A stretch of DNA of 32,000 bases, taken from positions 3,536,497 to 3,568,496 of the forward strand of contig NC_003902.1 of NCBI RefSeq assembly GCF_000007145.1, read 5' to 3'. This stretch comes from Xanthomonas campestris pv. campestris str. ATCC 33913. GTDB lineage: Bacteria > Pseudomonadota > Gammaproteobacteria > Xanthomonadales > Xanthomonadaceae. A program made the position numbers and the translations under genes. Every line of letters starts with the position of its first letter. Positions within the stretch are counted from its first letter, which is position 1. Shown here piece by piece: positions 2,616 to 24,644 of the stretch. The notes below the pieces were generated by a model, which was not told the origin of the DNA, ran no database searches, and saw only the letters and a program-made list of their open reading frames with translations.

Positions 2616-3506
2616 ATGGCTTCTTTTACGGCAGTTGACCTATCTAAGCTCCAAGCGCCAGATTTGATCGAGGCTCTGGACTTCGAAACGATATTCGCCG
2701 AAGCGCTGGCTCAATTCCGCCGACTGATGCCGGAGTTCTCTGCACTCACCGAAGCGGAACCGGTCTACAAGCTCGTGCAACTGTTCGCGGCCCGCGAGCT
2801 GCTGATTCGCCAGCGCGCCAACGACAAGGCGCAGCAGACGATGCTGGCCTTCGCCACTGGCACCAACCTTGATCACCTCGGCGCGCTGTTCGGTGTGGCG
2901 CGCCTGGTGCTCGCTCCGGGGCAACCTGAGACCGGCATTGCACCGACCCATGAGTCGGACGTGGACTTCCGCCGCCGCATCCAGCTGGCGCCCGAGGGCT
3001 TCAGCGTTGCCGGCCCCGAGGGCGCGTACATCTATCACGCGCTCAGCGCGGCGGCCGACGTCATGGATGCCAGCGCTACCAGCCCCGCGCCTGGGCAAGT
3101 GCTGGTCACCGTGCAATCGCGCACCGGCGACGGCACCGCACCGCAGGAACTGCTCGACGAAGTGGCCGCTGTCCTCACCGATGCCGACGTGCGCCCGTTG
3201 ACCGACGAGGTAGCTGTCCAGAGCGCACAGATCGTCCCATACGCCATTCGTGGGCGCGTCTACACCTACGCCGGGCCCGACTCGGCGGTGGTCATGCGCG
3301 AGGCGCTGCGCAGCCTGCAGGCCTATCTTGCCGAGGCGCACCGCATCGGCCGCGACGTCCCCGAGTCGGCCATCAAGGCCAAGCTGTTCGCTGATGGCGT
3401 GCAGCGTGTTGAGTTGGACTCGCCTGCAGCCGACATCCGCATTAGCCGCACGCAGGCTGCGTACTGCACTGCGATCGACATCGTGCACGCCGGCATCGAT
3501 GAGTAA
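2616..3506 (+). CDS. J: baseplate assembly protein J (P2 gpJ family)
   Basis: The MASFTAVDLSKLQAPDLIEALDFETIFAE.. N-terminus matches the gpJ family start. The ORF is open from TTG 2580/ATG 2583, so the start could be 33-36 nt further upstream. Confidence 0.9.
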   Translation: MASFTAVDLSKLQAPDLIEALDFETIFAEALAQFRRLMPEFSALTEAEPVYKLVQLFAARELLIRQRANDKAQQTMLAFATGTNLDHLGALFGVARLVLAPGQPETGIAPTHESDVDFRRRIQLAPEGFSVAGPEGAYIYHALSAAADVMDASATSPAPGQVLVTVQSRTGDGTAPQELLDEVAAVLTDADVRPLTDEVAVQSAQIVPYAIRGRVYTYAGPDSAVVMREALRSLQAYLAEAHRIGRDVPESAIKAKLFADGVQRVELDSPAADIRISRTQAAYCTAIDIVHAGIDE

Positions 3507-4047
3507 TTCTCCGCTGCCGCCCAATGCCACGCCGATGGAACGCGCCCTGGCGGCCGTCACCGAGCGCCTGGAAGCGATCCCGCTGCCGTATCCAGATCTG
3601 TGGAATCCGGACACGTGCCCAGCCGGCCATCTGCCGTGGCTGGCGTGGACGCTCTCGGTTGACGACTGGAAGGCCGACTGGAGCGATGCGGTCAAGCGTT
3701 CGCGCTTGCGTAGCGCTATGGCAATCCAACGCCGCAAGGGCACCGCCAATAGCGTGCGCATGGTGGTGGCCTCGTTCGGGGGTGCGGTGACCATCCGCGA
3801 GTGGTGGCAGCAGCAGCCACGCGGCCAGCCGCACACCTTTGAGCTGACCCTTACGCTCAATGGATCTGATGGCAGAGCCGCAAGCGCTCGATTTGTCGAT
3901 GAGGTCATCGCCGAGGTTGAGCGCACCAAGCCGGTCCGCTCGCACTTCGGCTTCGTGCAGGGGCTACAAGCCACCGGCAATGTCTCGCTGGTTACCGGTG
4001 TTCGCATCATCAACTACCGCCGTCTGTCGATGATGGCGCAGGGATAA
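3499..4047 (+). CDS. I: tail protein I (P2 gpI family)
   Basis: ATG 3499 overlaps the J stop (ATGAGTAA). Sequence MSNSPLPPNATPMERALAAV..HLPWLAWTLSVDDW..RKGT matches gpI. The upstream part of ORF 3250-4047 overlaps J and is not coding. Confidence 0.9.
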   Translation: MSNSPLPPNATPMERALAAVTERLEAIPLPYPDLWNPDTCPAGHLPWLAWTLSVDDWKADWSDAVKRSRLRSAMAIQRRKGTANSVRMVVASFGGAVTIREWWQQQPRGQPHTFELTLTLNGSDGRAASARFVDEVIAEVERTKPVRSHFGFVQGLQATGNVSLVTGVRIINYRRLSMMAQG

Positions 4048-11583: not shown

Positions 11584-11985
11584 ATGATGATGTCCTACGG
11601 CACGTTTGTGTTTGCCCTCGATAGCGCCGCATATCTGCAGCTGCAGCGGCAGATGAGTTGGCGCCACGCCACGAGCGATCGCGTTGGTGCGCGAGCGGCC
11701 AGCCAGTTCCTGGGTCCAGGCGATGAGACCATCGAGCTGTCAGGTCTGATCGCGCCGGACCTGACCGGCTCGCGTGGATCGCTGACCACGCTGCGCAGAC
11801 TCGCAGCAGCCGGCGAGCCGCTACCGCTGGTCGATGGCACGGGCTGGGTCTATGGGCCGTATGTGCTGCTGGCTGTCAACGAGACGGCCTCGCTGTTCTT
11901 CCCCGATGGCACGCCACGCCGGGTCGAGTTCCAACTGAGCCTGCGCCGCACCGACGACATTGCGCCCGAGGCGACCGCCCCATGA
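11584..11985 (+). CDS. U: tail protein U (P2 gpU family)
   Basis: 133 aa; ..YGTFVFALDSAAYLQLQRQMSWRHATSDRVGARAASQFLGPGDETIELSG.. Start is ambiguous among three tandem ATGs at 11584-11592. Confidence 0.9.
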   Translation: MMMSYGTFVFALDSAAYLQLQRQMSWRHATSDRVGARAASQFLGPGDETIELSGLIAPDLTGSRGSLTTLRRLAAAGEPLPLVDGTGWVYGPYVLLAVNETASLFFPDGTPRRVEFQLSLRRTDDIAPEATAP

Positions 11986-12968
11986 GCTACCCGATTCCGC
12001 AATGGCGCGTGGTGCTCGATGGCACCGACCTCACCGAGCGCATCGCACCGCGCCTGCTCGATCTCACCCTCACCGAATGCCGTGGCGGCGAAGCCGATCA
12101 GCTGGATCTGCGCATCCACGACCACGACGGCAAGATGGCGCTGCCCAAACGCGGCGTGCGCCTGGCCGTGGCGCTGGGCTGGAAAGCCACCGGCCTGGTC
12201 GACAAAGGCACCTTCATCGTGGACGAGGTGGAGTACAGCGGCGCGCCCGACATCATCACCGTGCGCGCGCGCAGTGCGGATCTCACCGCCGATATGCGCA
12301 CGCGGCGCGAGCGCAGCTGGCACAACACCACGTTGGGTGCAGTGCTCAACACGCTCGCTGGCGAGCATGGGCTGACGCCACGCGTGGCCGAGGCGCTGGC
12401 GCGCACCAAGCTGCCCCATCTCGACCAGGCCATCGAGAGCGACATGAATCTGCTCACCCGCTTGGGGCAGCGCTTTGATGCGGTGGCAACGGTGAAGGGA
12501 GGTGCGTTGGTCTTTGCGCCGATCGGCGCCGGCACTACAGCGGCCGGCAAGCCGTTGCCTACCGTCACCCTGACGCGGCGCGATGGTGATCAGCATCGCT
12601 ACTCAGTCGCCGACCGTGATGCTTACACCGGCGTGCGCGCGTACTGGGTGGACAAGGGCAAGGCGCGGCGGCAGTCGGTGCTGGTCGGCACAGACGACAA
12701 CGCCAAGCGCCTGCGCGAGTCTTATGCAGATGAGGCAACGGCACGCCAGCATGCGCATGCTGAGTTCGAACGCGTGAAGCGTGGGACGGCAAAGTTCGAC
12801 TACACGTTGGCGATTGGAAGGGCCGAGCTGTATCCGGAGCAGAGTGTTACGGTCGGCGGATTCAAGCCAGCGATAGATTCGCAAGGGTGGATTATCTCTC
12901 GGGCCACTCATTCCGTCAGTAGAGTCGGCTTCCAAAGCCACCTAGAGCTTGAGATATTCAGTGACTAG
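11982..12968 (+). CDS. D: tail protein D (late control gene D family)
   Basis: 328 aa with an ATGA overlap with U. Sequence ..QWRVVLDGTDLTERIAPRLLDLTLTECRGGEADQLDLRIHDHDG.. The last ~150 nt have intermediate GC (about 52%). Confidence 0.9.
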   Translation: MSYPIPQWRVVLDGTDLTERIAPRLLDLTLTECRGGEADQLDLRIHDHDGKMALPKRGVRLAVALGWKATGLVDKGTFIVDEVEYSGAPDIITVRARSADLTADMRTRRERSWHNTTLGAVLNTLAGEHGLTPRVAEALARTKLPHLDQAIESDMNLLTRLGQRFDAVATVKGGALVFAPIGAGTTAAGKPLPTVTLTRRDGDQHRYSVADRDAYTGVRAYWVDKGKARRQSVLVGTDDNAKRLRESYADEATARQHAHAEFERVKRGTAKFDYTLAIGRAELYPEQSVTVGGFKPAIDSQGWIISRATHSVSRVGFQSHLELEIFSD

Positions 12969-13053
12969 GCCGGTTGAAGTAAGAATTCCCCCTATAGTTG
13001 GCAGGCGGGAATTGTTGGTAAGCTGTTAAAAATATTTCCTATGGAGGGGTAAC

Positions 13054-14202
13054 TTGAAAAAGACCGGGCATCGAGACCCTAAGGATGGCCTTAAACACAC
13101 GGTTCGCTCCAAGGACCGTGAGCGCCGAAATATTAAAAGAAAGGATTGCAATTATATTTCTGGCAGATACGGCCAGCACATACCAACGAAGAACTATAAA
13201 TTTAAACTAAAAGGGAAAGTGCGTGGAACTGAATTTGTGCGCCTTCCCGCCACAATGGATTTGTCGTCTGACGAAAATAGAAATGATGTTCTTTCCGCAA
13301 TCGCACGCATAAAATCTGCGTCTCTATATGGCAACTATCGTAAGGTTGTGCTTGATCATACTTCAGTAACATCTATGTCTCCCGAAGTAGCGATGCTGAT
13401 GCTTGCGGAAATTCAAAGATGTAGAATTTACTGCGAACCAAGGACGCAGCTCACCGGCACTTATCCCGCAAACCATGATGTCTCTCATCTTTTGACGGAA
13501 ATAGGTTTCTATAAATCATTAGGAATAAAAGCTCCCAAGCTTCCAGCGACCTACGACTCGCGGACTTACATCAGAGTTGAGCGGCATAACAAGATCTTAG
13601 CAAAGGTAGCTGACGACCTACTCACATGCTTTGAAACTGAATTCACTTTTTCACCTCAAGATAAGCGCCGTCTCCAGATAGCGTTAGTAGAGTGTATGGA
13701 CAATGTCTTTCAGCACGCATACGTTTTTAACGAATCATGTCCAGCTGAAGCACATTTGTTTCGTGAATGGTGGATGGTCGGCTATTCAGATAGCACAGAC
13801 AAATCGATTTCATTCAGTTTCCTAGATCAAGGTAGAGGCATTGCTTCTACAATTCGGCGCAAGCTCGGCCGCAGTGTGATTGGCAAGTTGGGGGCCTGGC
13901 ATGATGGTCACTTCATTTCACGCGCCGTGCGAAAACGCATCTCTAGAATCGACTCAAAACGCCGAGGTCACGGACTGAAAAAGCTCAAAGCATTCGTAGA
14001 TAGGCTTGACTTTAACGGAACTCTTCGTGTACTGGCGAACAATGGCGATGTACAATGGACCACAGGACAGAAAAGTGTCGAACGTTCGATGCCCACGGAA
14101 CTATCAGGAACTTTGGTGGTCTGGTCTCTAAAGCCACCCCAACTGTTGCCGACCACTACAATATCTCATGCTGACTCAGACCATGAAATCCACCATGTTT
14201 AA
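13054..14202 (+). CDS. GHKL-superfamily (histidine-kinase-like / RsbW-SpoIIAB-like) ATPase with basic N-terminal tail and STAS-like middle region
   Basis: 382 aa; TTG start with GGAGGGG 6 nt upstream. N-box E213-x3-N217-x3-H221-A222 (VECMDNVFQHA), G1 D258-Q-G-R-G262, G2 G305-H-G-L308, G3 G352-T. Residues ~95-160 (VVLDHTSVTSMSPEVAMLMLAEIQR..HLLTEIGFYKSLG) resemble a STAS/anti-sigma-antagonist fold. Residues 1-60 are Lys/Arg-rich. Confidence 0.7.
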   Translation: MKKTGHRDPKDGLKHTVRSKDRERRNIKRKDCNYISGRYGQHIPTKNYKFKLKGKVRGTEFVRLPATMDLSSDENRNDVLSAIARIKSASLYGNYRKVVLDHTSVTSMSPEVAMLMLAEIQRCRIYCEPRTQLTGTYPANHDVSHLLTEIGFYKSLGIKAPKLPATYDSRTYIRVERHNKILAKVADDLLTCFETEFTFSPQDKRRLQIALVECMDNVFQHAYVFNESCPAEAHLFREWWMVGYSDSTDKSISFSFLDQGRGIASTIRRKLGRSVIGKLGAWHDGHFISRAVRKRISRIDSKRRGHGLKKLKAFVDRLDFNGTLRVLANNGDVQWTTGQKSVERSMPTELSGTLVVWSLKPPQLLPTTTISHADSDHEIHHV

Positions 14203-14506
14203 CGTAGCCAAATCTTTTTCTCGCTTCCCAGGGGGGCGAAGGAAAGATCATGGCCAGTTTTCAGGAGAAGAATTTCGTAATAAAGTCACTATTCCCCTGC
14301 TTGATAGTTACGATCATGTTACTTTTGACCTTTCCGGCACAGTCGGCTATAGCTCAGGCTTCTTAGATGAGGCTTTTGGTGAGATTGGTAAAATTCTTGG
14401 AATAAGCGAGGCAAAGCGCAGGGTAACAATCTTGGCTCAAGATGATCCTGAGGCTGTTGAAACAGTCTGGCTTCGTATAAGCGAAGCATCAGCGGAATCC
14501 CGTTAA
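14168..14506 (+). CDS. STAS-like protein (DUF4325-type)
   Basis: 112 aa. The pattern G-x-R..FSGEEFRNKV..PLL..VTFDLSGTVGYSSGFLDEAFGEI resembles the DUF4325/STAS-like family as I recall it, with a Ser pair placed as in the SpoIIAA DSSG motif. It overlaps the upstream gene; alternative starts are ATG 14183 and ATG 14195 (ATGTTTAA overlap). Confidence 0.6.
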   Translation: MLTQTMKSTMFNVAKSFSRFPGGRRKDHGQFSGEEFRNKVTIPLLDSYDHVTFDLSGTVGYSSGFLDEAFGEIGKILGISEAKRRVTILAQDDPEAVETVWLRISEASAESR

Positions 14507-14510
14507 TCTA

Positions 14511-14975
14511 ATGGTTGCGACCCCTTGGTGGTTTACAGTTATATGTATTCTACTCACAGGCCTCATCACCGACAGGCTTTCTCGCATGAGAGAGGCATCT
14601 GCACGGAAGACCGCAGATGTGAAACGCTGGCGTGAAGATTTGACAGAGGAACTCCATGAATGGTGCGCAGCTGCGAGTGAGCACTATACATCCCAAGACT
14701 CCATTAATAACACAGAAAAATCTGCAGCATTGCTAGTAGCTGGGTATCGAAGAATTCGACGCAATGCCGGCAAGTTTCCAACCATAAATATAGCTGATGG
14801 GGCTAAATGCCGAAGGTTGATGACTGATTTGGATGAGCTTGTAACAGGCGATCCTGATTTCGAAAATCAAAGCCGCGCTCTACGACCAGCAAGAGATCCA
14901 CTTTTAACTGAAATGCATAATCTTGCAGAGAAAATTGAGAATACATTTAATTTTCCGAGGAAAGAAAAATCCTGA
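14511..14975 (+). CDS. membrane-anchored helical protein, function unknown
   Basis: 154 aa, with ATG 4 nt after the previous stop. It has an N-terminal TM helix (WWFTVICILLTGLITD) followed by a charged helical region. Same AT-rich composition as the two upstream genes. Confidence 0.6.
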   Translation: MVATPWWFTVICILLTGLITDRLSRMREASARKTADVKRWREDLTEELHEWCAAASEHYTSQDSINNTEKSAALLVAGYRRIRRNAGKFPTINIADGAKCRRLMTDLDELVTGDPDFENQSRALRPARDPLLTEMHNLAEKIENTFNFPRKEKS

Positions 14976-15166
14976 ATCACTTGTTTTCTTAAGTGTTCCA
15001 CCTATTAGGTTCGCGAATTCTTATTTAACTTATTTGTTTTTAGGAGTTTTCCTACATAGATTTAGCAGTCAATGAGCCATGATTGCGCCGGGATGTCAGG
15101 CCATCTCGAACTGTCAGGATGACGGCTATTCGAACGCACGGAGCCACGCGCCGACACCTAAAGAAG

Positions 15167-15199
15167 CCACCGGTTAGAAGTCGGTGGTTTTTTCTTTGC
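15167..15199 (+). terminator. Rho-independent terminator, probably bidirectional, between the late/cargo operon and the convergent repressor gene
   Basis: CCACCG-gttagaagt-CGGTGG followed by TTTTTTCTTT. On the opposite strand the same stem is followed by CTTCTTT and preceded by an A-run. Confidence 0.7.
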
Positions 15200-15271
15200 G
15201 AGCTAGCAAGCTCTACAGTTCAGGCAGGTATAGCCGATAACGGCCAATTTCCCAAGACCATCTGTCCCACT

Positions 15272-15299
15272 AGCAGCTGCACTAGCTGCTCTTTTTTTT
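15272..15299 (+). terminator. second plus-strand terminator-like hairpin + T8, overlapping the 3' end of the minus-strand repressor CDS
   Basis: AGCAGC-tgcacta-GCTGCT then C TTTTTTTT. The T-run is the complement of the Lys codons of the repressor C-terminal KKAKKK tail. Confidence 0.4.
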
Positions 15300-15710
15300 G
15301 GCTTTCTTTCCGCCCAGGTTGATGGTCAGTCCGGGCTGACTGATATCGCCGCTTAGCGCTTGCCCAACTTCGTTGGCATGCATCACGAACTTGTGCCGGC
15401 CTGATGCTTTCACCGCCGCACCTAGCGCCGCGCTGACGGCCAACTTGATCTCTGGCGATGCAACACGATAGGCCGACAGCACCTGTGCCTCATCCGCGCT
15501 GATGCCATTGCGCTCGCCGGTGAGCACATAGAGCACATCGATCCCCAGCGTAGTAGCCGCGAGCAGGTATGCACCACCGGGCAACTGTTCGCCCTCTTCT
15601 TTTTCAAAGTTGACCTGAGCACGCTTCGTCAACCCGCAGCGTTCCGCCAACTCGGTCTGTGTCAGACCAATGCGTTTGCGCTCTTGCTTCAACCTCAAAC
15701 CAACCGACAC
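15282..15710 (-). CDS. XRE-family helix-turn-helix repressor (prophage immunity repressor, C/CI analogue)
   Basis: 142 aa; GTG start with AAGGAG 6 nt upstream. N-terminal LKQERKRIGLTQTELAERCGLTKRAQVNFEKEE is a Cro/C1-type HTH. Divergent from a cro-like gene. No S24 peptidase motif was seen. Confidence 0.85.
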   Translation of the reverse strand: MSVGLRLKQERKRIGLTQTELAERCGLTKRAQVNFEKEEGEQLPGGAYLLAATTLGIDVLYVLTGERNGISADEAQVLSAYRVASPEIKLAVSAALGAAVKASGRHKFVMHANEVGQALSGDISQPGLTINLGGKKAKKKSS

Positions 15711-15720
15711 AAAAATCTCC

Positions 15721-15749
15721 TTGAAAGGTGCACTTAAGTTCCCTATTCT
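15721..15749 (+). promoter_or_regulatory. candidate sigma70 early promoter (TTGAAA - 17 nt - TATTCT) with palindrome ACTTAAGT in the spacer
   Basis: -35 at 15721-15726 and -10 at 15744-15749, 28 nt upstream of the cro-like ATG. The 8-bp perfect palindrome at 15732-15739 is a possible operator half-pair. Confidence 0.5.
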
Positions 15750-15776
15750 TGCCGTACACCAACGTGAAGCACCGAT

Positions 15777-16031
15777 ATGCCTGCACGCCGCAAGACCACT
15801 GCCACACCTCCCACACGCACCACAGATGAAGCTCGAACCTGGCTTCGTGCCAATGGCATCACCATTGCTTCATTCGCTCGCAAACATGGCTTGAGCCGCG
15901 ATGTTGTGGGCGATTTGCTACTTGGCAGAACAGTTGGGAATTTCGGAGACACACACCGCGCAGCAGTGCTGCTGGGCCTGAAACCGAACCCGGATTCTGC
16001 CACACAATCCCCGAAATCCTCGCGGAACTAG
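15777..16031 (+). CDS. small Cro/Ner-like DNA-binding protein (first gene of early rightward operon)
   Basis: 84 aa. EARTWLRANGITIASFARKHGLSRDVVGDLLLGR..GDTHRAAVLLGLK resembles Ner/phage-associated HTH proteins. Divergent from the repressor. Confidence 0.65.
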   Translation: MPARRKTTATPPTRTTDEARTWLRANGITIASFARKHGLSRDVVGDLLLGRTVGNFGDTHRAAVLLGLKPNPDSATQSPKSSRN

Positions 16032-16037
16032 GCGGGC

Positions 16038-16349
16038 ATGTCAGCCGTCCTTCCACGACGCAAAGCGGTCTTCATTTGTGAAGGCTGTGGGTCCTCACTG
16101 CACAAGCGCAGTAGCTATCTCACACACCGATTTCTTCGCAACGACGTGTACGTCTGCGACAACCCGGTGTGCGGTGCCAGCTACACCGGTCACACCGAAC
16201 TGACGGGCCTGTGCAGCCCCAGTGGCATGCCACACGCGCACAGCGATTTGCCGCCGACACCAGGCTACCTCCGCGCGATGGCACTCAAAGCGTACCGCGA
16301 GGTTGCCAATGCCGCGCAGATGGATCTTCTAGACGCCGCAGCACCGTAG
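16038..16349 (+). CDS. ogr: Ogr/Delta-family zinc-finger late-gene activator
   Basis: 103 aa. C-x2-C-x22-C-x4-C (CEGCGSSLHKRSSYLTHRFLRNDVYVCDNPVCGASYTGHTEL) matches the P2 Ogr/P4 Delta zinc-finger layout. Confidence 0.8.
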   Translation: MSAVLPRRKAVFICEGCGSSLHKRSSYLTHRFLRNDVYVCDNPVCGASYTGHTELTGLCSPSGMPHAHSDLPPTPGYLRAMALKAYREVANAAQMDLLDAAAP

Positions 16350-16371
16350 TTTTCAGCCTCAGGGGGCATCC

Positions 16372-16653
16372 ATGATGGGCAAGATCGAGCTTGCGGACCT
16401 TACGTCCGCTCAACAGTTGTGCCTGCAATCCGCCGTTCGCTGCGGTGGTCTGACCAAAACCGGTGCCGAATACGCACCGCGTTACCACCACGAGCGCGAA
16501 GTTGGACGCACCTACGACACAGCCACCGTGGCGCAGTTGATGCTGCGCGGTCTGCTCATGAGCAGCCGCACACACTCCATGCATGCGCTGGCGACCGATG
16601 CGGCAATGGAACTGCTGGACTACGGCAGCGTTGCGCGGGAGATCAGCGCATGA
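16372..16653 (+). CDS. hypothetical phage early protein
   Basis: 93-aa ORF in the early operon. Its stop overlaps the next ATG (ATGA). Confidence 0.55.
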   Translation: MMGKIELADLTSAQQLCLQSAVRCGGLTKTGAEYAPRYHHEREVGRTYDTATVAQLMLRGLLMSSRTHSMHALATDAAMELLDYGSVAREISA

Positions 16654-22285: not shown

Positions 22286-22503
22286 CCGGGCGAATCCTGC
22301 ATTTCGTCGACCTGCAGCGCATCTGTTCGCCGGACGGCCCGGCGCCACGCCTCACCGTCGTCTGCCGCTGGGCTGACCGCGAAGGCATCCGCTACCGCTA
22401 CGACCGCAAGGGTCGGATATGGACAACGATCGACGCAGTGAATGCCGCGCTTGGCATCGCCGAGCCTGCGGCCAACCAAGAAAATGCCATGGAGCTGATC
22501 TGA
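22282..22503 (+). CDS. small protein immediately upstream of int; candidate excisionase / DNA-binding accessory factor
   Basis: 73 aa from ATG 22282 (ATGA overlap). Its stop overlaps the int ATG (TGATG). The call rests on position and a loose resemblance to small integrase-associated proteins. Confidence 0.4.
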   Translation: MTGRILHFVDLQRICSPDGPAPRLTVVCRWADREGIRYRYDRKGRIWTTIDAVNAALGIAEPAANQENAMELI

Positions 22504-23702
22504 TGGGACGCGGTAGAAAACGGAAGTTCAACCCAGCCATTCCTAGCCATGTTGACCAACAAGCCCTTCCTCAAGGGCTTTATTGGGAGAGCAACCGCTG
22601 GTTCATGTATGAGCCTCATAAAGAAGGAGGGCGTCTCACGAAGCGAACGGTTGCGCTTGCCAGTGCACGTCTCTCCGAGCTGCATGCGATTGTCGAAGCG
22701 GCTAGGGGAGGTAGCGCGCAAGGGACGCTGGCCTATCTTTGCGATCATTTTCTTGGCACCCCGCCGATTGCCGCATCCAGTGAGTTCAAGGAACTCGCGG
22801 CGGGGACGCAGAAAGACTATCGCCAATGCGCTGCTGCGGCGTGCAGCTACGTGCTGAAGGACGGTTCCACCCTGGGAAAGATGCAAGTTGCGCGGATGAA
22901 TATCCCCATGATCCAGCGTCTTGTTGAGACGCTGGCAAACGGACGCTCCGCCAGTGCGTCGCAGCCATTGATTGAGCCCCGTCCAAGCAAGGCAAATCAC
23001 GTCCTGCGTTTCCTCAGAAGGTTGTTCTCTTGGGGGATGCGATTCGGGCTTTGCGCCCACAATCCTGCCAAGGGCGTGCGGCAGGCGAGGGAGCTGGCCG
23101 AGCATAAAATGCCGGAGTCCGATGCGTTTGCCACGATTTTAGACTTCGCTCGCCAGCGCGGCCGGCTCAAGGCACACAGCCTTGGCAGCGTCTCTCCCTA
23201 CTTACATGCGGTGATGCAATTGGCTTACAACCTGCGACTTCGTGGGGTTGAGGTCACCGAACTCACTGACGCACATGCTGACGAGGTCGGGATCCGGAGC
23301 AACCGGCGCAAAGGCTCTCGGGACAACATCACCACGTGGAATGACGAATTGAGGGAGGCTTGGCAGTGGCTGGTCGGCTATCGGAAAGATGCAATGTCGG
23401 CGCGCGGCCGCCCCGTGGAGCTGAAGCCCGAAAAACGTCGCCTTCTGGTCAATCAGTCAGGTACACCCCTAAGTAAAGGGGCGCTGGACAGCGCATGGCA
23501 GCGGATGATGCAGATGGCGATTCGAGAGAAGGTCATCAGGGAAGATCAGCGCTTCTCGCTGCACGGTCTCAAGCATCGCGGCATCACCGATACGGTTGGG
23601 AACCGCGCCGACAAGCAAGACGCCGCTGGGCACAAGTCGCCTCATATGACTCAACGTTACGACCACCAGGTGCCCGTCGTGAGTCCGCCGAAAAAGCAGT
23701 GA
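22503..23702 (+). CDS. int: tyrosine-type site-specific integrase
   Basis: 399 aa from ATG 22503. The C-terminal catalytic region is ..FSLHGLKHRGITDTVGN..AAGHKSPHMTQRYDH (H-x-x-R, H, Y). It lies adjacent to a tRNA 3' end. Confidence 0.9.
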   Translation: MGRGRKRKFNPAIPSHVDQQALPQGLYWESNRWFMYEPHKEGGRLTKRTVALASARLSELHAIVEAARGGSAQGTLAYLCDHFLGTPPIAASSEFKELAAGTQKDYRQCAAAACSYVLKDGSTLGKMQVARMNIPMIQRLVETLANGRSASASQPLIEPRPSKANHVLRFLRRLFSWGMRFGLCAHNPAKGVRQARELAEHKMPESDAFATILDFARQRGRLKAHSLGSVSPYLHAVMQLAYNLRLRGVEVTELTDAHADEVGIRSNRRKGSRDNITTWNDELREAWQWLVGYRKDAMSARGRPVELKPEKRRLLVNQSGTPLSKGALDSAWQRMMQMAIREKVIREDQRFSLHGLKHRGITDTVGNRADKQDAAGHKSPHMTQRYDHQVPVVSPPKKQ

Positions 23703-23709
23703 CCGCACA

Positions 23710-23742
23710 GCGCTGCAGTTGCCGAACTCGTGGCTGCAGCGC
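23710..23742 (+). other. perfect 9-bp inverted repeat GCGCTGCAG-(15 nt)-CTGCAGCGC just downstream of int, inside the att arm
   Basis: Read directly from the sequence. A T10 run follows at 23776-23785. Confidence 0.4.
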
Positions 23743-23806
23743 GACTCAGTGGGGCCGTGGAACAATGAAATTCAGTTTTTTTTTTCAACAATTTTTCCAA
23801 ACGCAC

Positions 23807-23827
23807 AAAAAAGGCGCCATCGGCGCC
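23807..23827 (-). terminator. Rho-independent terminator downstream of tRNA-Lys
   Basis: On the minus strand, GGCGCC-gat-GGCGCC is followed by TTTTTT, 20 nt after the tRNA 3' end. Confidence 0.6.
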
Positions 23828-23847
23828 ATCTAAGTCATTGAATTTAT

Positions 23848-23923
23848 TGGTGGGCCGTGATGGATTCGAACCATCGACCAAAAGATTAAAAGTCTTCTGC
23901 TCTACCGACTGAGCTAACGGCCC
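23848..23923 (-). tRNA. tRNA-Lys (anticodon UUU), CCA encoded
   Basis: The reverse complement GGGCCGTTAGCTCAGTCGGTAGAGCAGAAGACTTTTAATCTTTTGGTCGATGGTTCGAATCCATCACGGCCCACCA folds by hand into a 76-nt cloverleaf with a 7-bp acceptor stem, anticodon loop CTTTTAA and T-loop TTCGAAT. Confidence 0.95.
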
Positions 23924-23969
23924 ACTGCCCGACTGTGCGCCGGGGTGCGCATTCTACCCTACACCGGCG

Positions 23970-24644
23970 TCAAGACGAAATCGCGTAATGCGTCGGGTCC
24001 GGCACGCCGGCGTCGGCAAAGCCGGCTGCGCGCAGACGACAGGCATCGCAATGGCCGCAGGCACGTCCGTCGGCGTCGGCGTTGTAGCACGAGACGGTGA
24101 GGCCGAAGTCCACGCCCAGGCGAACGCCCGCACGCACGATGTCGGCCTTGCTGAGGAACTGCAGCGGCGCATGCACGCGCAGGCCCGCGCCTTCCACGCC
24201 GGCCTTGGTGGCCAGATTCGCCAGCACCTCGAAGGCACGCACGAACTCTGGCCGGCAGTCCGGGTAGCCGGAATAGTCGACCGCGTTGACGCCGCAGAAC
24301 AGGTCGTTGGCGCCGACCACTTCGGCCCAACCCAGGGCAAGCGACAACATGATGGTGTTGCGCGCCGGCACGTAGGTGACCGGGATTCCCGCGCCTCCTG
24401 CCTCCGGCACGTCGATGTCAGCGGTCAGCGCCGAGCCACCGATGCTGCGCAGGTCAACGTCCACCACCTTGTGCGCCACCACGCCCTGCGCGGCGGCGAC
24501 GCGCGCCGCCGCGTCCAGCTCGGAGGTATGGCGCTGCCCATAGCGCACGCTCAACGCATGCACCGCGAAGCCCTGCTCTTGCGCAAGCGCGATAACGGCG
24601 GCGGAATCCATGCCCCCGGACAACAGAACAACGGCTTTTTTCAT
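23970..24644 (-). CDS. queC: 7-cyano-7-deazaguanine synthase
   Basis: 224 aa. [17 protein letters not shown] (PP-loop SGGxDS) and the C-terminal Cys cluster C..CGHCDAC match QueC. Confidence 0.95.

Follow-up and report, generated by a model that had tools for sequence, protein, structure and literature searches.

A kinase-STAS-membrane protein cassette carried as accessory cargo by a P2-like prophage of Xanthomonas campestris: a candidate relative of the CapK/VapK modules

The window analysed here is a stretch of 32,000 nucleotides from Xanthomonas campestris pv. campestris ATCC 33913, in which positions 13054-14975 hold a cassette of three closely packed open reading frames (ORFs), all on the + strand and all annotated as hypothetical. 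Gene 1 (13054-14202, +, 382 aa) starts with a TTG codon, and a Shine-Dalgarno-like GGAGGGG (13043..13049, +) is located 4 nt 5' of this start. Gene 2 (14168-14506, +, 112 aa) has alternative starts at 14183 and 14195; it overlaps gene 1 by 35 nt when the ATG at 14168 is used and by 8 nt with the ATG at 14195. A gap of 4 nt separates it from gene 3 (14511-14975, +, 154 aa). An earlier note, made from the sequence of this stretch, had described three same-strand ORFs with an overlap followed by a 4-nt gap, and the ORF coordinates agree with that description. It had also placed the ORFs after D, at the distal end of the tail operon, and before the immunity repressor, which matches the Pfam assignments of the flanking genes: GpU (11584-11985) and GPD (11982-12968) lie upstream of the cassette, and a convergent HTH repressor gene (15282-15710, - strand) lies downstream, with an Ogr/Delta protein and a Toprim primase also found by Pfam on that side.

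Downstream of gene 2, only the 154-aa membrane gene precedes two terminator-like hairpins and the convergent repressor gene. The first hairpin, identified from its sequence and fold, is located 3' of gene 3 (15161..15199, +) and reads GCCACCGG...TCGGTGG followed by T6. The second (15272..15300, +) carries a T8 run and overlaps the stop of the repressor gene. No convincing sigma-70 promoter was found between gpD and gene 1, no direct or inverted repeats flank the cassette as insertion marks, and no Rfam family matches within 12500-16500. Neither a sigma factor nor a PP2C phosphatase is present among the ORFs and Pfam matches of the cassette and its flanks.

The cassette has a GC content of 45.4%, compared to 64.2% upstream and 61.6% downstream, and the GC3 of its genes ranges from 0.37 to 0.44, compared to 0.775 for gpD. 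The drop amounts to ~17-19 points relative to the prophage mean and to ~20-25 points relative to the neighbouring tail genes; the low GC noted previously is therefore real, but the deficit of ~25 points given for it was slightly overstated. This composition is foreign to the P2-like prophage, and we read the cassette as an accessory module of that prophage, acquired horizontally.

Judged from its sequence and its structural model, gene 1 is predicted to encode a CapK/VapK-like kinase built from a Lys/Arg-rich, conserved N-terminal extension (residues 1-56, 13054..13221, +), a STAS-like domain (residues 57-180, 13222..13593, +) and a GHKL (Bergerat-fold) kinase/ATPase domain (residues 183-360, 13600..14133, +). 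The GHKL domain contains an N-box with Asn217 (codon 13702-13704), a G1 box (D258-Q-G260) and a G2 box (G305-H-G307); none of the residues N217, D258, G260, G305 and G307 varies among 121 relatives with 19-43% identity. The GHKL boxes reported earlier are thus present and conserved, and the GHKL fold proposed along with them finds a second line of support in a Foldseek search with the AF2 model (pLDDT 77.4), which is nearest to SpoIIAB (1tid, 1l0o; prob 1.00, TM 0.60-0.67). The kinase domain also resembles SiaB, from the SiaB-SiaC structure (6kko_A), at a TM of 0.43. At the sequence level, the best PDB match of the family profile is RsbW (6m36, E 0.0094), while the profile of close relatives returned no PDB match even at E<=10. 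The HATPase_c_2 match of gene 1 itself is sub-threshold; this model is matched by 62 of the 121 family members, and HATPase_c is also matched at the family level. Gene 1 matches phrog_3364 (E 8e-32), and an hhalign comparison with a Deinococcus VapK-like protein aligns 215 columns from residue 100 (87%, E 4e-6).

The first 60 residues of gene 1 include 20 Lys or Arg. The match to the phrog family begins at residue 70, and an over-extended ORF was considered as an explanation for the tail and rejected. The tail is kept in homologues, with R29 and N47 nearly invariant (alignment A6), and is therefore not an artefact of a start placed too early. In the AF2 model it forms a helix at residues 9-30, the remainder being of low confidence. 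The region that follows is modelled with higher confidence (pLDDT 87-96), and its succession of strands and helices (E57-63, H73-92, E95-101, H110-127, E132-135, H141-150, E172-178) forms a beta-alpha topology of the STAS type. The sequence-only signal for this domain is weak: no Pfam STAS model is significant on gene 1 or its family, and the hhalign comparison with SpoIIAA is weak but in register (E 0.0019, 90 columns). When the same region was compared with the gene 2 family by hhalign, the result was not significant, which argues that the two STAS domains of the cassette are not recent duplicates. No HTH family of Pfam matches gene 1 or gene 2.

Gene 2 consists of a STAS domain only. It belongs to Pfam DUF4325 (38.6 bits, above the cut-off of 23; E 8.8e-10) and carries a 'D-L-S-G...S-S-G-F-L' motif whose Ser-containing arrangement resembles that of SpoIIAA. 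The top PDB match of its profile (A2) is VapS (9Z7O_A), at a borderline E of 0.0036, and an hhalign comparison with a Deinococcus VapS-like protein gave 90% (E 1.7e-6). Ser63 (codon 14354-14356, +) is invariant in the conservation alignment and aligns with Ser66 of the VapS chain; from the chain length of 134 residues, this Ser66 can be deduced to be native Ser48, the phospho-acceptor. The STAS-like partner announced by the earlier note can hence be retained, with a family match above threshold and VapS as its best solved relative. That note had also singled out a pair of serines, Ser62 and Ser63, as the place of phosphorylation; Ser63 keeps this candidacy, but Ser62 is not invariant. By sequence, gene 2 is presumed to be the substrate of the gene 1 kinase.

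Gene 3 is predicted to encode a single-pass, N-terminally anchored helical protein. A hydrophobic helix spans approximately residues 4-21 (14520-14573), the Kyte-Doolittle maximum of 1.92 falls at residues 1-19, and an Arg/Lys-rich stretch follows. The AF2 model is all-helical but of low confidence (pLDDT 52.6, pTM 0.35); together with the hydropathy, it is in line with the N-anchored helical membrane protein proposed before. Profile searches returned no relatives of gene 3 in Pfam, PADLOC, NCBIfam or the PDB. On purely positional grounds, it is presumed to be the effector of the cassette.

An exhaustive profile search places gene 1 in a kinase family of 3,234 representatives of 50%-identity clusters (E<=1e-3). 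A family of this size is visible with that approach but not in a word-index homology search, whose output was limited to 13 close relatives for gene 1 and a single relative for gene 3. In 42 non-redundant loci, a kinase gene and a STAS gene lie side by side. Of the 39 such loci with enough room downstream for a third ORF, 37 have one with a hydrophobic helix, which is mostly N-terminal. Because of this adjacency and the recurrence of the third ORF, we regard the three genes as real and conserved. The sequence of gene 3 evolves fast, as judged from a profile comparison of third genes, in which the Xanthomonadales type and the Marinobacter-phage type showed no significant similarity. Among 38 third-gene proteins, neither a PIN domain nor any other Pfam domain was matched.

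The cassette recurs on mobile elements, and phage AS1, three plasmids and 19 viral contigs are among these loci. Viral contigs scanned with the alignment of close gene 1 relatives (A1) gave no match; with a 22-sequence kinase alignment as seed, the cassette was located on 19 IMG/VR contigs, where its neighbours include integrases, CI/S24 repressors, CII, GpU and GPD. In Marinobacter phage AS1 it adjoins cro/cI, and in Francisella phage KIRK it directly follows the CI repressor gene (PMC7924643). Three plasmids, from Leptospira, Vibrio and Novosphingobium, carry it beside toxin-antitoxin genes, with partition genes also nearby. In P2-like phages, the cassette is replaceable cargo after gpD and is found there in either orientation. 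The earlier note had expected the interval between D and the repressor to vary among related prophages, and it does so in the nearest phage, Smp131, where the cassette is absent from this position. Hotspots of defence genes have been documented in P2-like prophages, one of them beside cI (10.1101/2021.01.21.427644). Homologues are also found in chromosomal islets that have no phage genes, and no obvious defence islands surround the chromosomal homologues that were examined.

This distribution bears on a reading in which genes 1 and 2 are a housekeeping anti-sigma/anti-anti-sigma pair of a host stress regulon that came to lie in the prophage by chance. The resemblance of gene 1 to RsbW and SpoIIAB and the STAS-like nature of gene 2 speak for such a pair; the SpoIIAB-SpoIIAA and RsbW-RsbV pairs share with the cassette a Ser kinase of the same GHKL fold and a STAS substrate with a Ser. 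They differ from it in that the Xanthomonas cassette has neither a sigma factor nor a PP2C phosphatase, its kinase has a STAS domain of its own fused to it, and it resides on mobile elements. In 18 viral loci, 126 ORFs neighbouring the cassette match 45 Pfam families, and among the 25 of these that were listed there is likewise no sigma-factor or PP2C family. The earlier note had named residence in housekeeping sigma-factor regulons as evidence against its own defence reading; the homologues lie instead on phages, plasmids and genomic islets. With the foreign composition added, we consider the housekeeping pair highly improbable.

A much closer parallel is provided by VapKSC, which consists of the VapK kinase, the VapS STAS antitoxin and the VapC PIN toxin (Chambers et al., EMBO J 2026, PMC13373217). 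VapS is an antitoxin that holds the effector directly and lets it go when Ser48 carries a phosphomimetic change; protection by vapKSC against phage Bas42 amounts to ~2 logs (PMC13373217). The Deinococcus VapK-like and VapS-like proteins compared above come from a VapKSC-type operon on plasmid P5, which encodes homologues of both gene 1 and gene 2. The two systems are three-gene operons with the same gene order, their first genes encode STAS+GHKL kinases, and their second genes encode proteins of ~110-120 aa with one fully conserved Ser; among proteins of solved structure, VapS is the best match of gene 2, and Ser63 falls on its Ser48. They differ in the third gene, which encodes a PIN nuclease in VapKSC and a single-pass helical membrane protein in the Xanthomonas cassette. 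Accordingly, an hhalign comparison of the gene 3 profile with the PIN protein that the P5 operon encodes gave a probability of 0.9%, and no VapC homology is indicated. A further difference is the conserved basic N-terminal extension of ~56 aa, which belongs to gene 1.

The second relative is CapK/CapS, in which a DNA-damage-activated kinase acts with a STAS-wHTH repressor that controls adjacent immune operons (PMC13373217). As in the cassette, its kinase has STAS and GHKL parts and its substrate a STAS domain with a conserved Ser, and mobile or immune contexts are common to both. In contrast, CapK has an N-terminal HTH and CapS a C-terminal wHTH, which genes 1 and 2 lack, and CapK/CapS sits directly upstream of a regulated immune operon, for which the Xanthomonas cassette has no counterpart. 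Both CapK and VapK respond to DNA damage, and single-stranded DNA (ssDNA) is the activating signal described for CapK, with a conserved aromatic residue of the STAS domain (F54 in VapK, W68 in CapK) serving in this activation (PMC13373217). In a weak hhalign alignment, W53 of the Deinococcus VapK-like protein falls on the column of S107 in gene 1, which is variable in the gene 1 family. The aromatic described for VapK as contacting ssDNA may therefore be absent from this family, and an ssDNA trigger may not apply to it. Taken with VapKSC, these modules qualify the description of the trio as uncharacterised: kinase-STAS modules homologous to it are now characterised.

We favour, at roughly even chances of being correct, a reading in which the cassette would be a member of the superfamily of CapK/VapK kinases and STAS substrates, with a phosphorylation switch gating a membrane effector. 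In a resting lysogen, the gene 2 STAS protein would bind the cytoplasmic helical domain of gene 3 and hold it inactive. A signal from infection or DNA damage, which may be a nucleic acid recognised in the STAS-GHKL groove or by the basic N-terminal tail of gene 1, would switch on the kinase, which would place a phosphate on Ser63 of gene 2. The phosphorylated gene 2 protein would release gene 3, and the free membrane protein would damage or depolarise the inner membrane; growth arrest and aborted infection would then protect the prophage together with the population of lysogens. Since the cassette encodes no phosphatase, the switch would work in one direction only. Phosphotransfer, the partner that gene 2 binds, the toxicity of gene 3, the kind of trigger and the action against phages are all inferred. 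The partner-switching idea of the earlier note survives in this scheme as a kinase-STAS module, but an antitoxin release of the VapKSC kind differs from the classical RsbW-type switch.

A functional analogue would be RexAB of phage lambda, in which a cytoplasmic sensor activates a membrane protein and thereby aborts infection. RexAB is also encoded by a prophage and adjoins the repressor gene. It has no sequence or fold relationship to the cassette, however; RexB is polytopic, and neither a kinase nor a STAS protein takes part.

In an alternative that we judge unlikely, the cassette would be a classical partner switch, and gene 3 would serve as a sensor or anchor that binds the kinase (cf. RsbW-sigma-B) and not the STAS protein. 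Gene 3 would then hold or control the kinase at the membrane and signal events at the envelope, for instance the entry of phage DNA. As output, gene 2 would act, according to whether it is phosphorylated, on a target that lies outside the cassette. The fold of gene 1 is nearest to that of anti-sigma kinases, and such kinases directly bind the protein they control; gene 3 lacks a toxin-like domain, and its fast evolution is often seen with sensors that face phage proteins. The SiaABCD system of Pseudomonas aeruginosa adds to these points, as a separate effector is controlled there by whether a small switch protein is phosphorylated, the STAS-like protein activating the enzyme SiaD. SiaB-SiaC resembles the cassette through the structural kinship of SiaB with the gene 1 kinase domain, but its effector is a diguanylate cyclase, a phosphatase is present, and the system is chromosomal and regulates biofilm. 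Two observations speak against a classical switch. The cassette moves as a self-contained trio among unrelated phages, plasmids and phyla, so that an external target is unlikely to be available in every host. Furthermore, in the sole characterised three-gene relative, VapKSC, it is the effector that the STAS protein binds.

The genes around the cassette raise another alternative, in which it would be an addiction or stabilisation module or a life-cycle regulator of its element, with phage exclusion absent or incidental. It could stabilise the prophage or plasmid in the manner of a toxin-antitoxin pair, or couple DNA damage to the timing of induction or lysis. Its proximity to toxin-antitoxin and partition genes on plasmids, and to cI, cII and integrase genes on phages, would be in keeping with such a role, as would the response of CapK and VapK to DNA damage, which is also a signal for prophage induction. 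A precedent is the prophage kinase module KKP, which is reported to govern both lysogeny and defence (PMC11341870). However, the cassette is also carried by chromosomal islets without phage genes, and its behaviour as replaceable cargo after gpD, in either orientation and missing from the closest phage, is unlike that of a core regulator. We hold this second alternative to be rather improbable.

The favoured reading of a kinase-STAS switch gating a membrane effector can be taken further, and here we are more tentative. The trio might be a widespread, unnamed immune family of phages and plasmids, in which phosphorylation of a STAS protein controls a single-pass membrane toxin that evolves fast. 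The membrane toxin might then represent a second class of effector for the CapK/VapK sensor kinases, with a trigger that may be read by the basic tail specific to this family and may differ from the ssDNA that activates CapK; we would put this extension as a whole at somewhat less than an even chance. If the favoured reading holds, the kinase-STAS phospho-switch would be a general modular sensor that can serve the CapS transcription factor, the VapC nuclease or a membrane effector. The recurrence of the cassette in temperate phages beside the immunity region could also account for the superinfection behaviour of P2-like and other lysogens, and the lysogens concerned include a plant pathogen of interest for phage biocontrol. 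The cassette would moreover be a compact model in which to study the control of a membrane protein by a soluble switch protein.

The favoured reading would also imply a defence module that current annotation tools have overlooked. None of the three proteins matches a PADLOC-DB v2.0.0 model at E<=1, in agreement with the earlier statement that the trio corresponds to no named defence system, and NCBIfam returned only noise for them. Among the 121 kinase relatives, one weakly matches the PADLOC model PDC-S02 (E 9e-5).

Three open reading frames on the + strand form the cassette. The earlier note had described them as a kinase-like gene, a STAS-like partner and a membrane-protein gene in the same orientation, and the ORF coordinates agree with this. 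Gene 1 (13054-14202) encodes 382 residues from a TTG start, with GGAGGGG read in the sequence 4 nt 5' of it, and is followed by gene 2 (14168-14506, 112 residues) and gene 3 (14511-14975, 154 residues). The start of gene 2 lies inside gene 1, with an overlap of 35 nt if it is ATG 14168 or 8 nt if it is ATG 14195, and gene 3 follows gene 2 after 4 nt. The GC content is 45.4%, compared with 64.2% upstream and 61.6% downstream, and GC3 is 0.37-0.44, compared with 0.775 for the tail gene gpD. Because both values lie well below those of the flanks and gpD, the cassette DNA is clearly foreign. The low-GC island recognized previously is present, but the drop of about 25 points given for it is slightly high relative to the prophage mean. 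Pfam matches place GpU (11584-11985) and GPD (11982-12968) upstream of the cassette, and a convergent HTH repressor (15282-15710), an Ogr/Delta protein and a Toprim primase downstream. The right end of the prophage (22419-24644) is marked by an integrase (22419-23702, + strand), a tRNA-Lys(ttt) gene (23848-23923, - strand), which is likely the attachment site, and host queC (23970-24644, - strand). The genome of the nearest sequenced phage, the P2-like Stenotrophomonas phage Smp131, carries no counterpart of the cassette after D; the closest protein match, by annotation, is in Xanthomonas citri pv. glycines. The 85 nt that separate the stop of gpD from the start of gene 1 (12969-13053) show neither a promoter-like nor a terminator-like site, and the cassette could be transcribed by read-through from the late tail operon or from an unrecognized promoter. 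Two terminator-like hairpins with T-runs lie 3' of gene 3 on the + strand, at 15161-15199 and 15272-15300. The latter takes in the stop codon of the convergent repressor gene and could serve both directions.

Gene 1 gives only sub-threshold Pfam matches, to HATPase_c_2 and HATPase_c, and matches phrog_3364 at 8e-32. An exhaustive search with its profile returned 3,234 cluster representatives (clustered at 50% identity) at E<=1e-3, 226 of them at 1e-30, with lengths of 280-410 aa for almost all of the best 150 of the 3,234. Across 121 relatives, 19-43% identical to gene 1, residues N217, D258, G260, G305 and G307 are invariant, and E213 and H221 nearly so; the invariant residues are those of the N, G1 and G2 boxes of GHKL ATP-binding sites, and HATPase_c_2 is detected in 62 of these relatives. 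A Foldseek search of the PDB with the AlphaFold2 model (pLDDT 77.4, pTM 0.76) returned GHKL folds, including SiaB, and the best match normalized by target length was the small anti-sigma Ser kinase SpoIIAB (prob 1.00, TM 0.60-0.67). RsbW was the top match of the family profile among PDB sequences (E 0.0094). Residues 57-180 are modelled as an alternating β-α domain of STAS-like topology (pLDDT 87-96), which aligns weakly with SpoIIAA in hhalign (E 0.0019), in register over 90 columns. Pfam STAS models stayed below significance in gene 1 and its 121-member family, so that this putative STAS domain is assigned from its predicted topology and from homology to proteins like VapK, the kinase of the VapKSC kinase-antitoxin-toxin system. 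The Lys/Arg-rich first 56 residues are kept in homologues; an ORF-calling artefact is thereby ruled out, and the basic tail is a genuine family feature.

Gene 2 passes the Pfam DUF4325 (‘STAS-like’) cut-off of 23 with 38.6 bits. Residues R24, G29, G33, F36, P43, G60, S63, F65, L66, E68, F70, G71, D93 and A107 are invariant across 12 homologues with identities as low as 30%; of the Ser pair previously proposed as the phosphorylation site, Ser63 is among them and Ser62 is not. Among solved structures, the family profile matches best the Escherichia STAS antitoxin VapS (9Z7O_A, E 0.0036), in which chain residue Ser66 aligns with Ser63. As the deposited chain has 134 residues and native VapS ends at residue 116 (PMC13373217), a difference we read as an 18-residue tag, Ser66 would correspond to the native phospho-acceptor Ser48. 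The match of gene 2 to phrog_5816 is confined to positions 338-436 of 441, so some larger phage proteins end in a DUF4325 domain, and their N-terminal part is not gene 1-like. Hydrophobicity in gene 3 peaks at residues 1-19 (Kyte-Doolittle 1.92), and since an Arg/Lys run comes next, the positive-inside rule predicts that the other ~130 residues are cytoplasmic. No relatives were found in Pfam, NCBIfam, PADLOC or the PDB, and the AlphaFold2 model is all-helical (6-60, 66-86, 94-113, 120-145) with low confidence (pLDDT 52.6).

No PADLOC v2 model matches any of the three proteins, and the 121 gene 1 relatives gave one weak match. A full-text literature search returned one directly relevant study, Chambers et al., EMBO J 2026 (PMC13373217). 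It describes CapK, an ssDNA-activated HTH-STAS-GHKL kinase; CapS, a STAS-wHTH repressor phosphorylated at a conserved Ser; and VapKSC, a three-gene toxin-antitoxin-like system in which the PIN toxin VapC is bound by VapS and thereby inhibited, a phosphomimetic change in VapS (S48E) sets VapC free, and the operon gives ~2 logs of protection against phage Bas42. Transmembrane partners and DUF4325 are not mentioned there; in an older survey, DUF4325 genes had been noted in association with PIN genes (PMC5499597). Plasmid P5 of Deinococcus gobiensis carries a VapKSC-type operon. Its kinase is homologous to gene 1 (hhalign 87%, E 4e-6) and its STAS protein to gene 2 (90%, E 1.7e-6), whereas the PIN gene shows no relationship to gene 3 (0.9%). 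The cassette falls outside VapKSC, whose defining PIN toxin is absent, outside CapK/CapS, as both DNA-binding domains and the downstream operon are missing, and outside the sigma-factor partner switches, as it has neither sigma factor nor phosphatase. Most plausibly, by analogy, its mechanism follows that of VapKSC but acts through another effector: Ser63 of gene 2 would be phosphorylated by the kinase, and gene 2 would then release or activate the membrane-anchored gene 3 protein, and the resulting membrane damage would lead to abortive infection. The analysis shows the domain-level steps; phosphotransfer, the gene 2 binding partner, gene 3 toxicity, the trigger and the phenotype we infer. 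CapK and this cassette may respond to different triggers: a basic tail stands where CapK has its N-terminal HTH, and, in a weak alignment, the column opposite a Trp in the VapK-like protein varies within the gene 1 family.

Loci were gathered from gene-context look-ups, from tblastn of plasmids and phages, and by scanning contigs of genomes, metagenomes and viruses, and their ORFs were scored with profiles built in this analysis. A gene 1 homologue directly followed by a match to A2, our gene 2 family profile, occurs at 42 non-redundant loci, a sample seeded from gene 1-like motifs and therefore uninformative on the share of PIN versus membrane effectors in the whole kinase family. The third gene could be judged in 39, the other three having too little downstream sequence. 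In 37 of the 39 it encodes a protein of 101-240 aa that includes a hydrophobic helix (Kyte-Doolittle maximum 1.1-2.5), mostly near the N-terminus with basic residues after it; the other two are L053, an ambiguous case in which the start-trimmed ORF lacks the N-terminal hydrophobic segment, and the Deinococcus operon, found through VapS, with its PIN gene. None of 38 third proteins matched a Pfam family. Their sequences diverge fast: the Xanthomonadales and Marinobacter-phage types are linked only via an intermediate profile (96.7%, 90.7%), the Leptospira type has no profile link to the others, and the third proteins may be one family or several analogous ones. On three metagenome contigs (L033 3775-4502, L038 5001-5924, L039 3632-4776) the gene 1 homologue is split into at least two ORFs, up to four in L039, with genes 2 and 3 intact; this reflects either kinase decay or assembly errors.

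The trio adjoins cro/cI in Marinobacter phage AS1 (genes 41-39), and in Francisella phage KIRK it directly follows CI (Fhv_0046-0048), as a 293-aa protein 23% identical to that of AS1, a DUF4325 protein and a 125-aa transmembrane protein (PMC7924643). With such neighbours, the trio might be an addiction or life-cycle module of its element, which we consider improbable beside the VapKSC-like defence reading. On plasmids it adjoins MNT/HepT (Leptospira), MazEF and antirestriction genes (Vibrio) and HigAB (Novosphingobium). It also occurs on 19 IMG/VR viral contigs; Pfam matches among 126 neighbouring ORFs from 18 of these include integrases (5), CII (4), S24 or CI repressors (3+2), GpU (3) and GPD (3). 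No sigma factor or PP2C phosphatase is among the 25 listed of 45 neighbour Pfam families at these 18 loci. The kinase resembles SpoIIAB and RsbW, and gene 3 might instead serve a classical partner switch, as its sensor or anchor at the membrane; this is unlikely beside VapKSC-like signalling to a membrane effector. Three of the contigs are P2-like with the cassette directly after gpD, co-oriented in L046 (5156-9774) and convergent in L052 (4552-8105) and L055 (7557-11204), which points to the end of the P2-like tail operon as a place where cargo recurs. Together with chromosomal islets of Marilutibacter, Luteimonas and Rhodanobacter, these settings are mobile contexts rather than sigma-factor regulons, as the earlier note had anticipated; its observation of the trio was confirmed, and its interpretation was supported at every point testable in silico. 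The trio, which is widespread, carried by phages and so far without annotation, is a variant of an immune signalling module that was described only very recently, and it has a putative membrane effector of its own. Toxin-antitoxin or Abi genes adjoin the cassette in unrelated replicons: AbiEii/NTP_transf_5 (L010/L011, ~3270-3885), MNT/HepT (L016, 8023-8677), MazEF (L017, 4663-5270) and HigAB (L015, 11372-11981). In Marilutibacter and Rhodanobacter (L003/L006, L007) the same large fused methylmalonyl-CoA-mutase/MeaB gene lies directly upstream of the cassette, which suggests a common chromosomal insertion site in the two genera.
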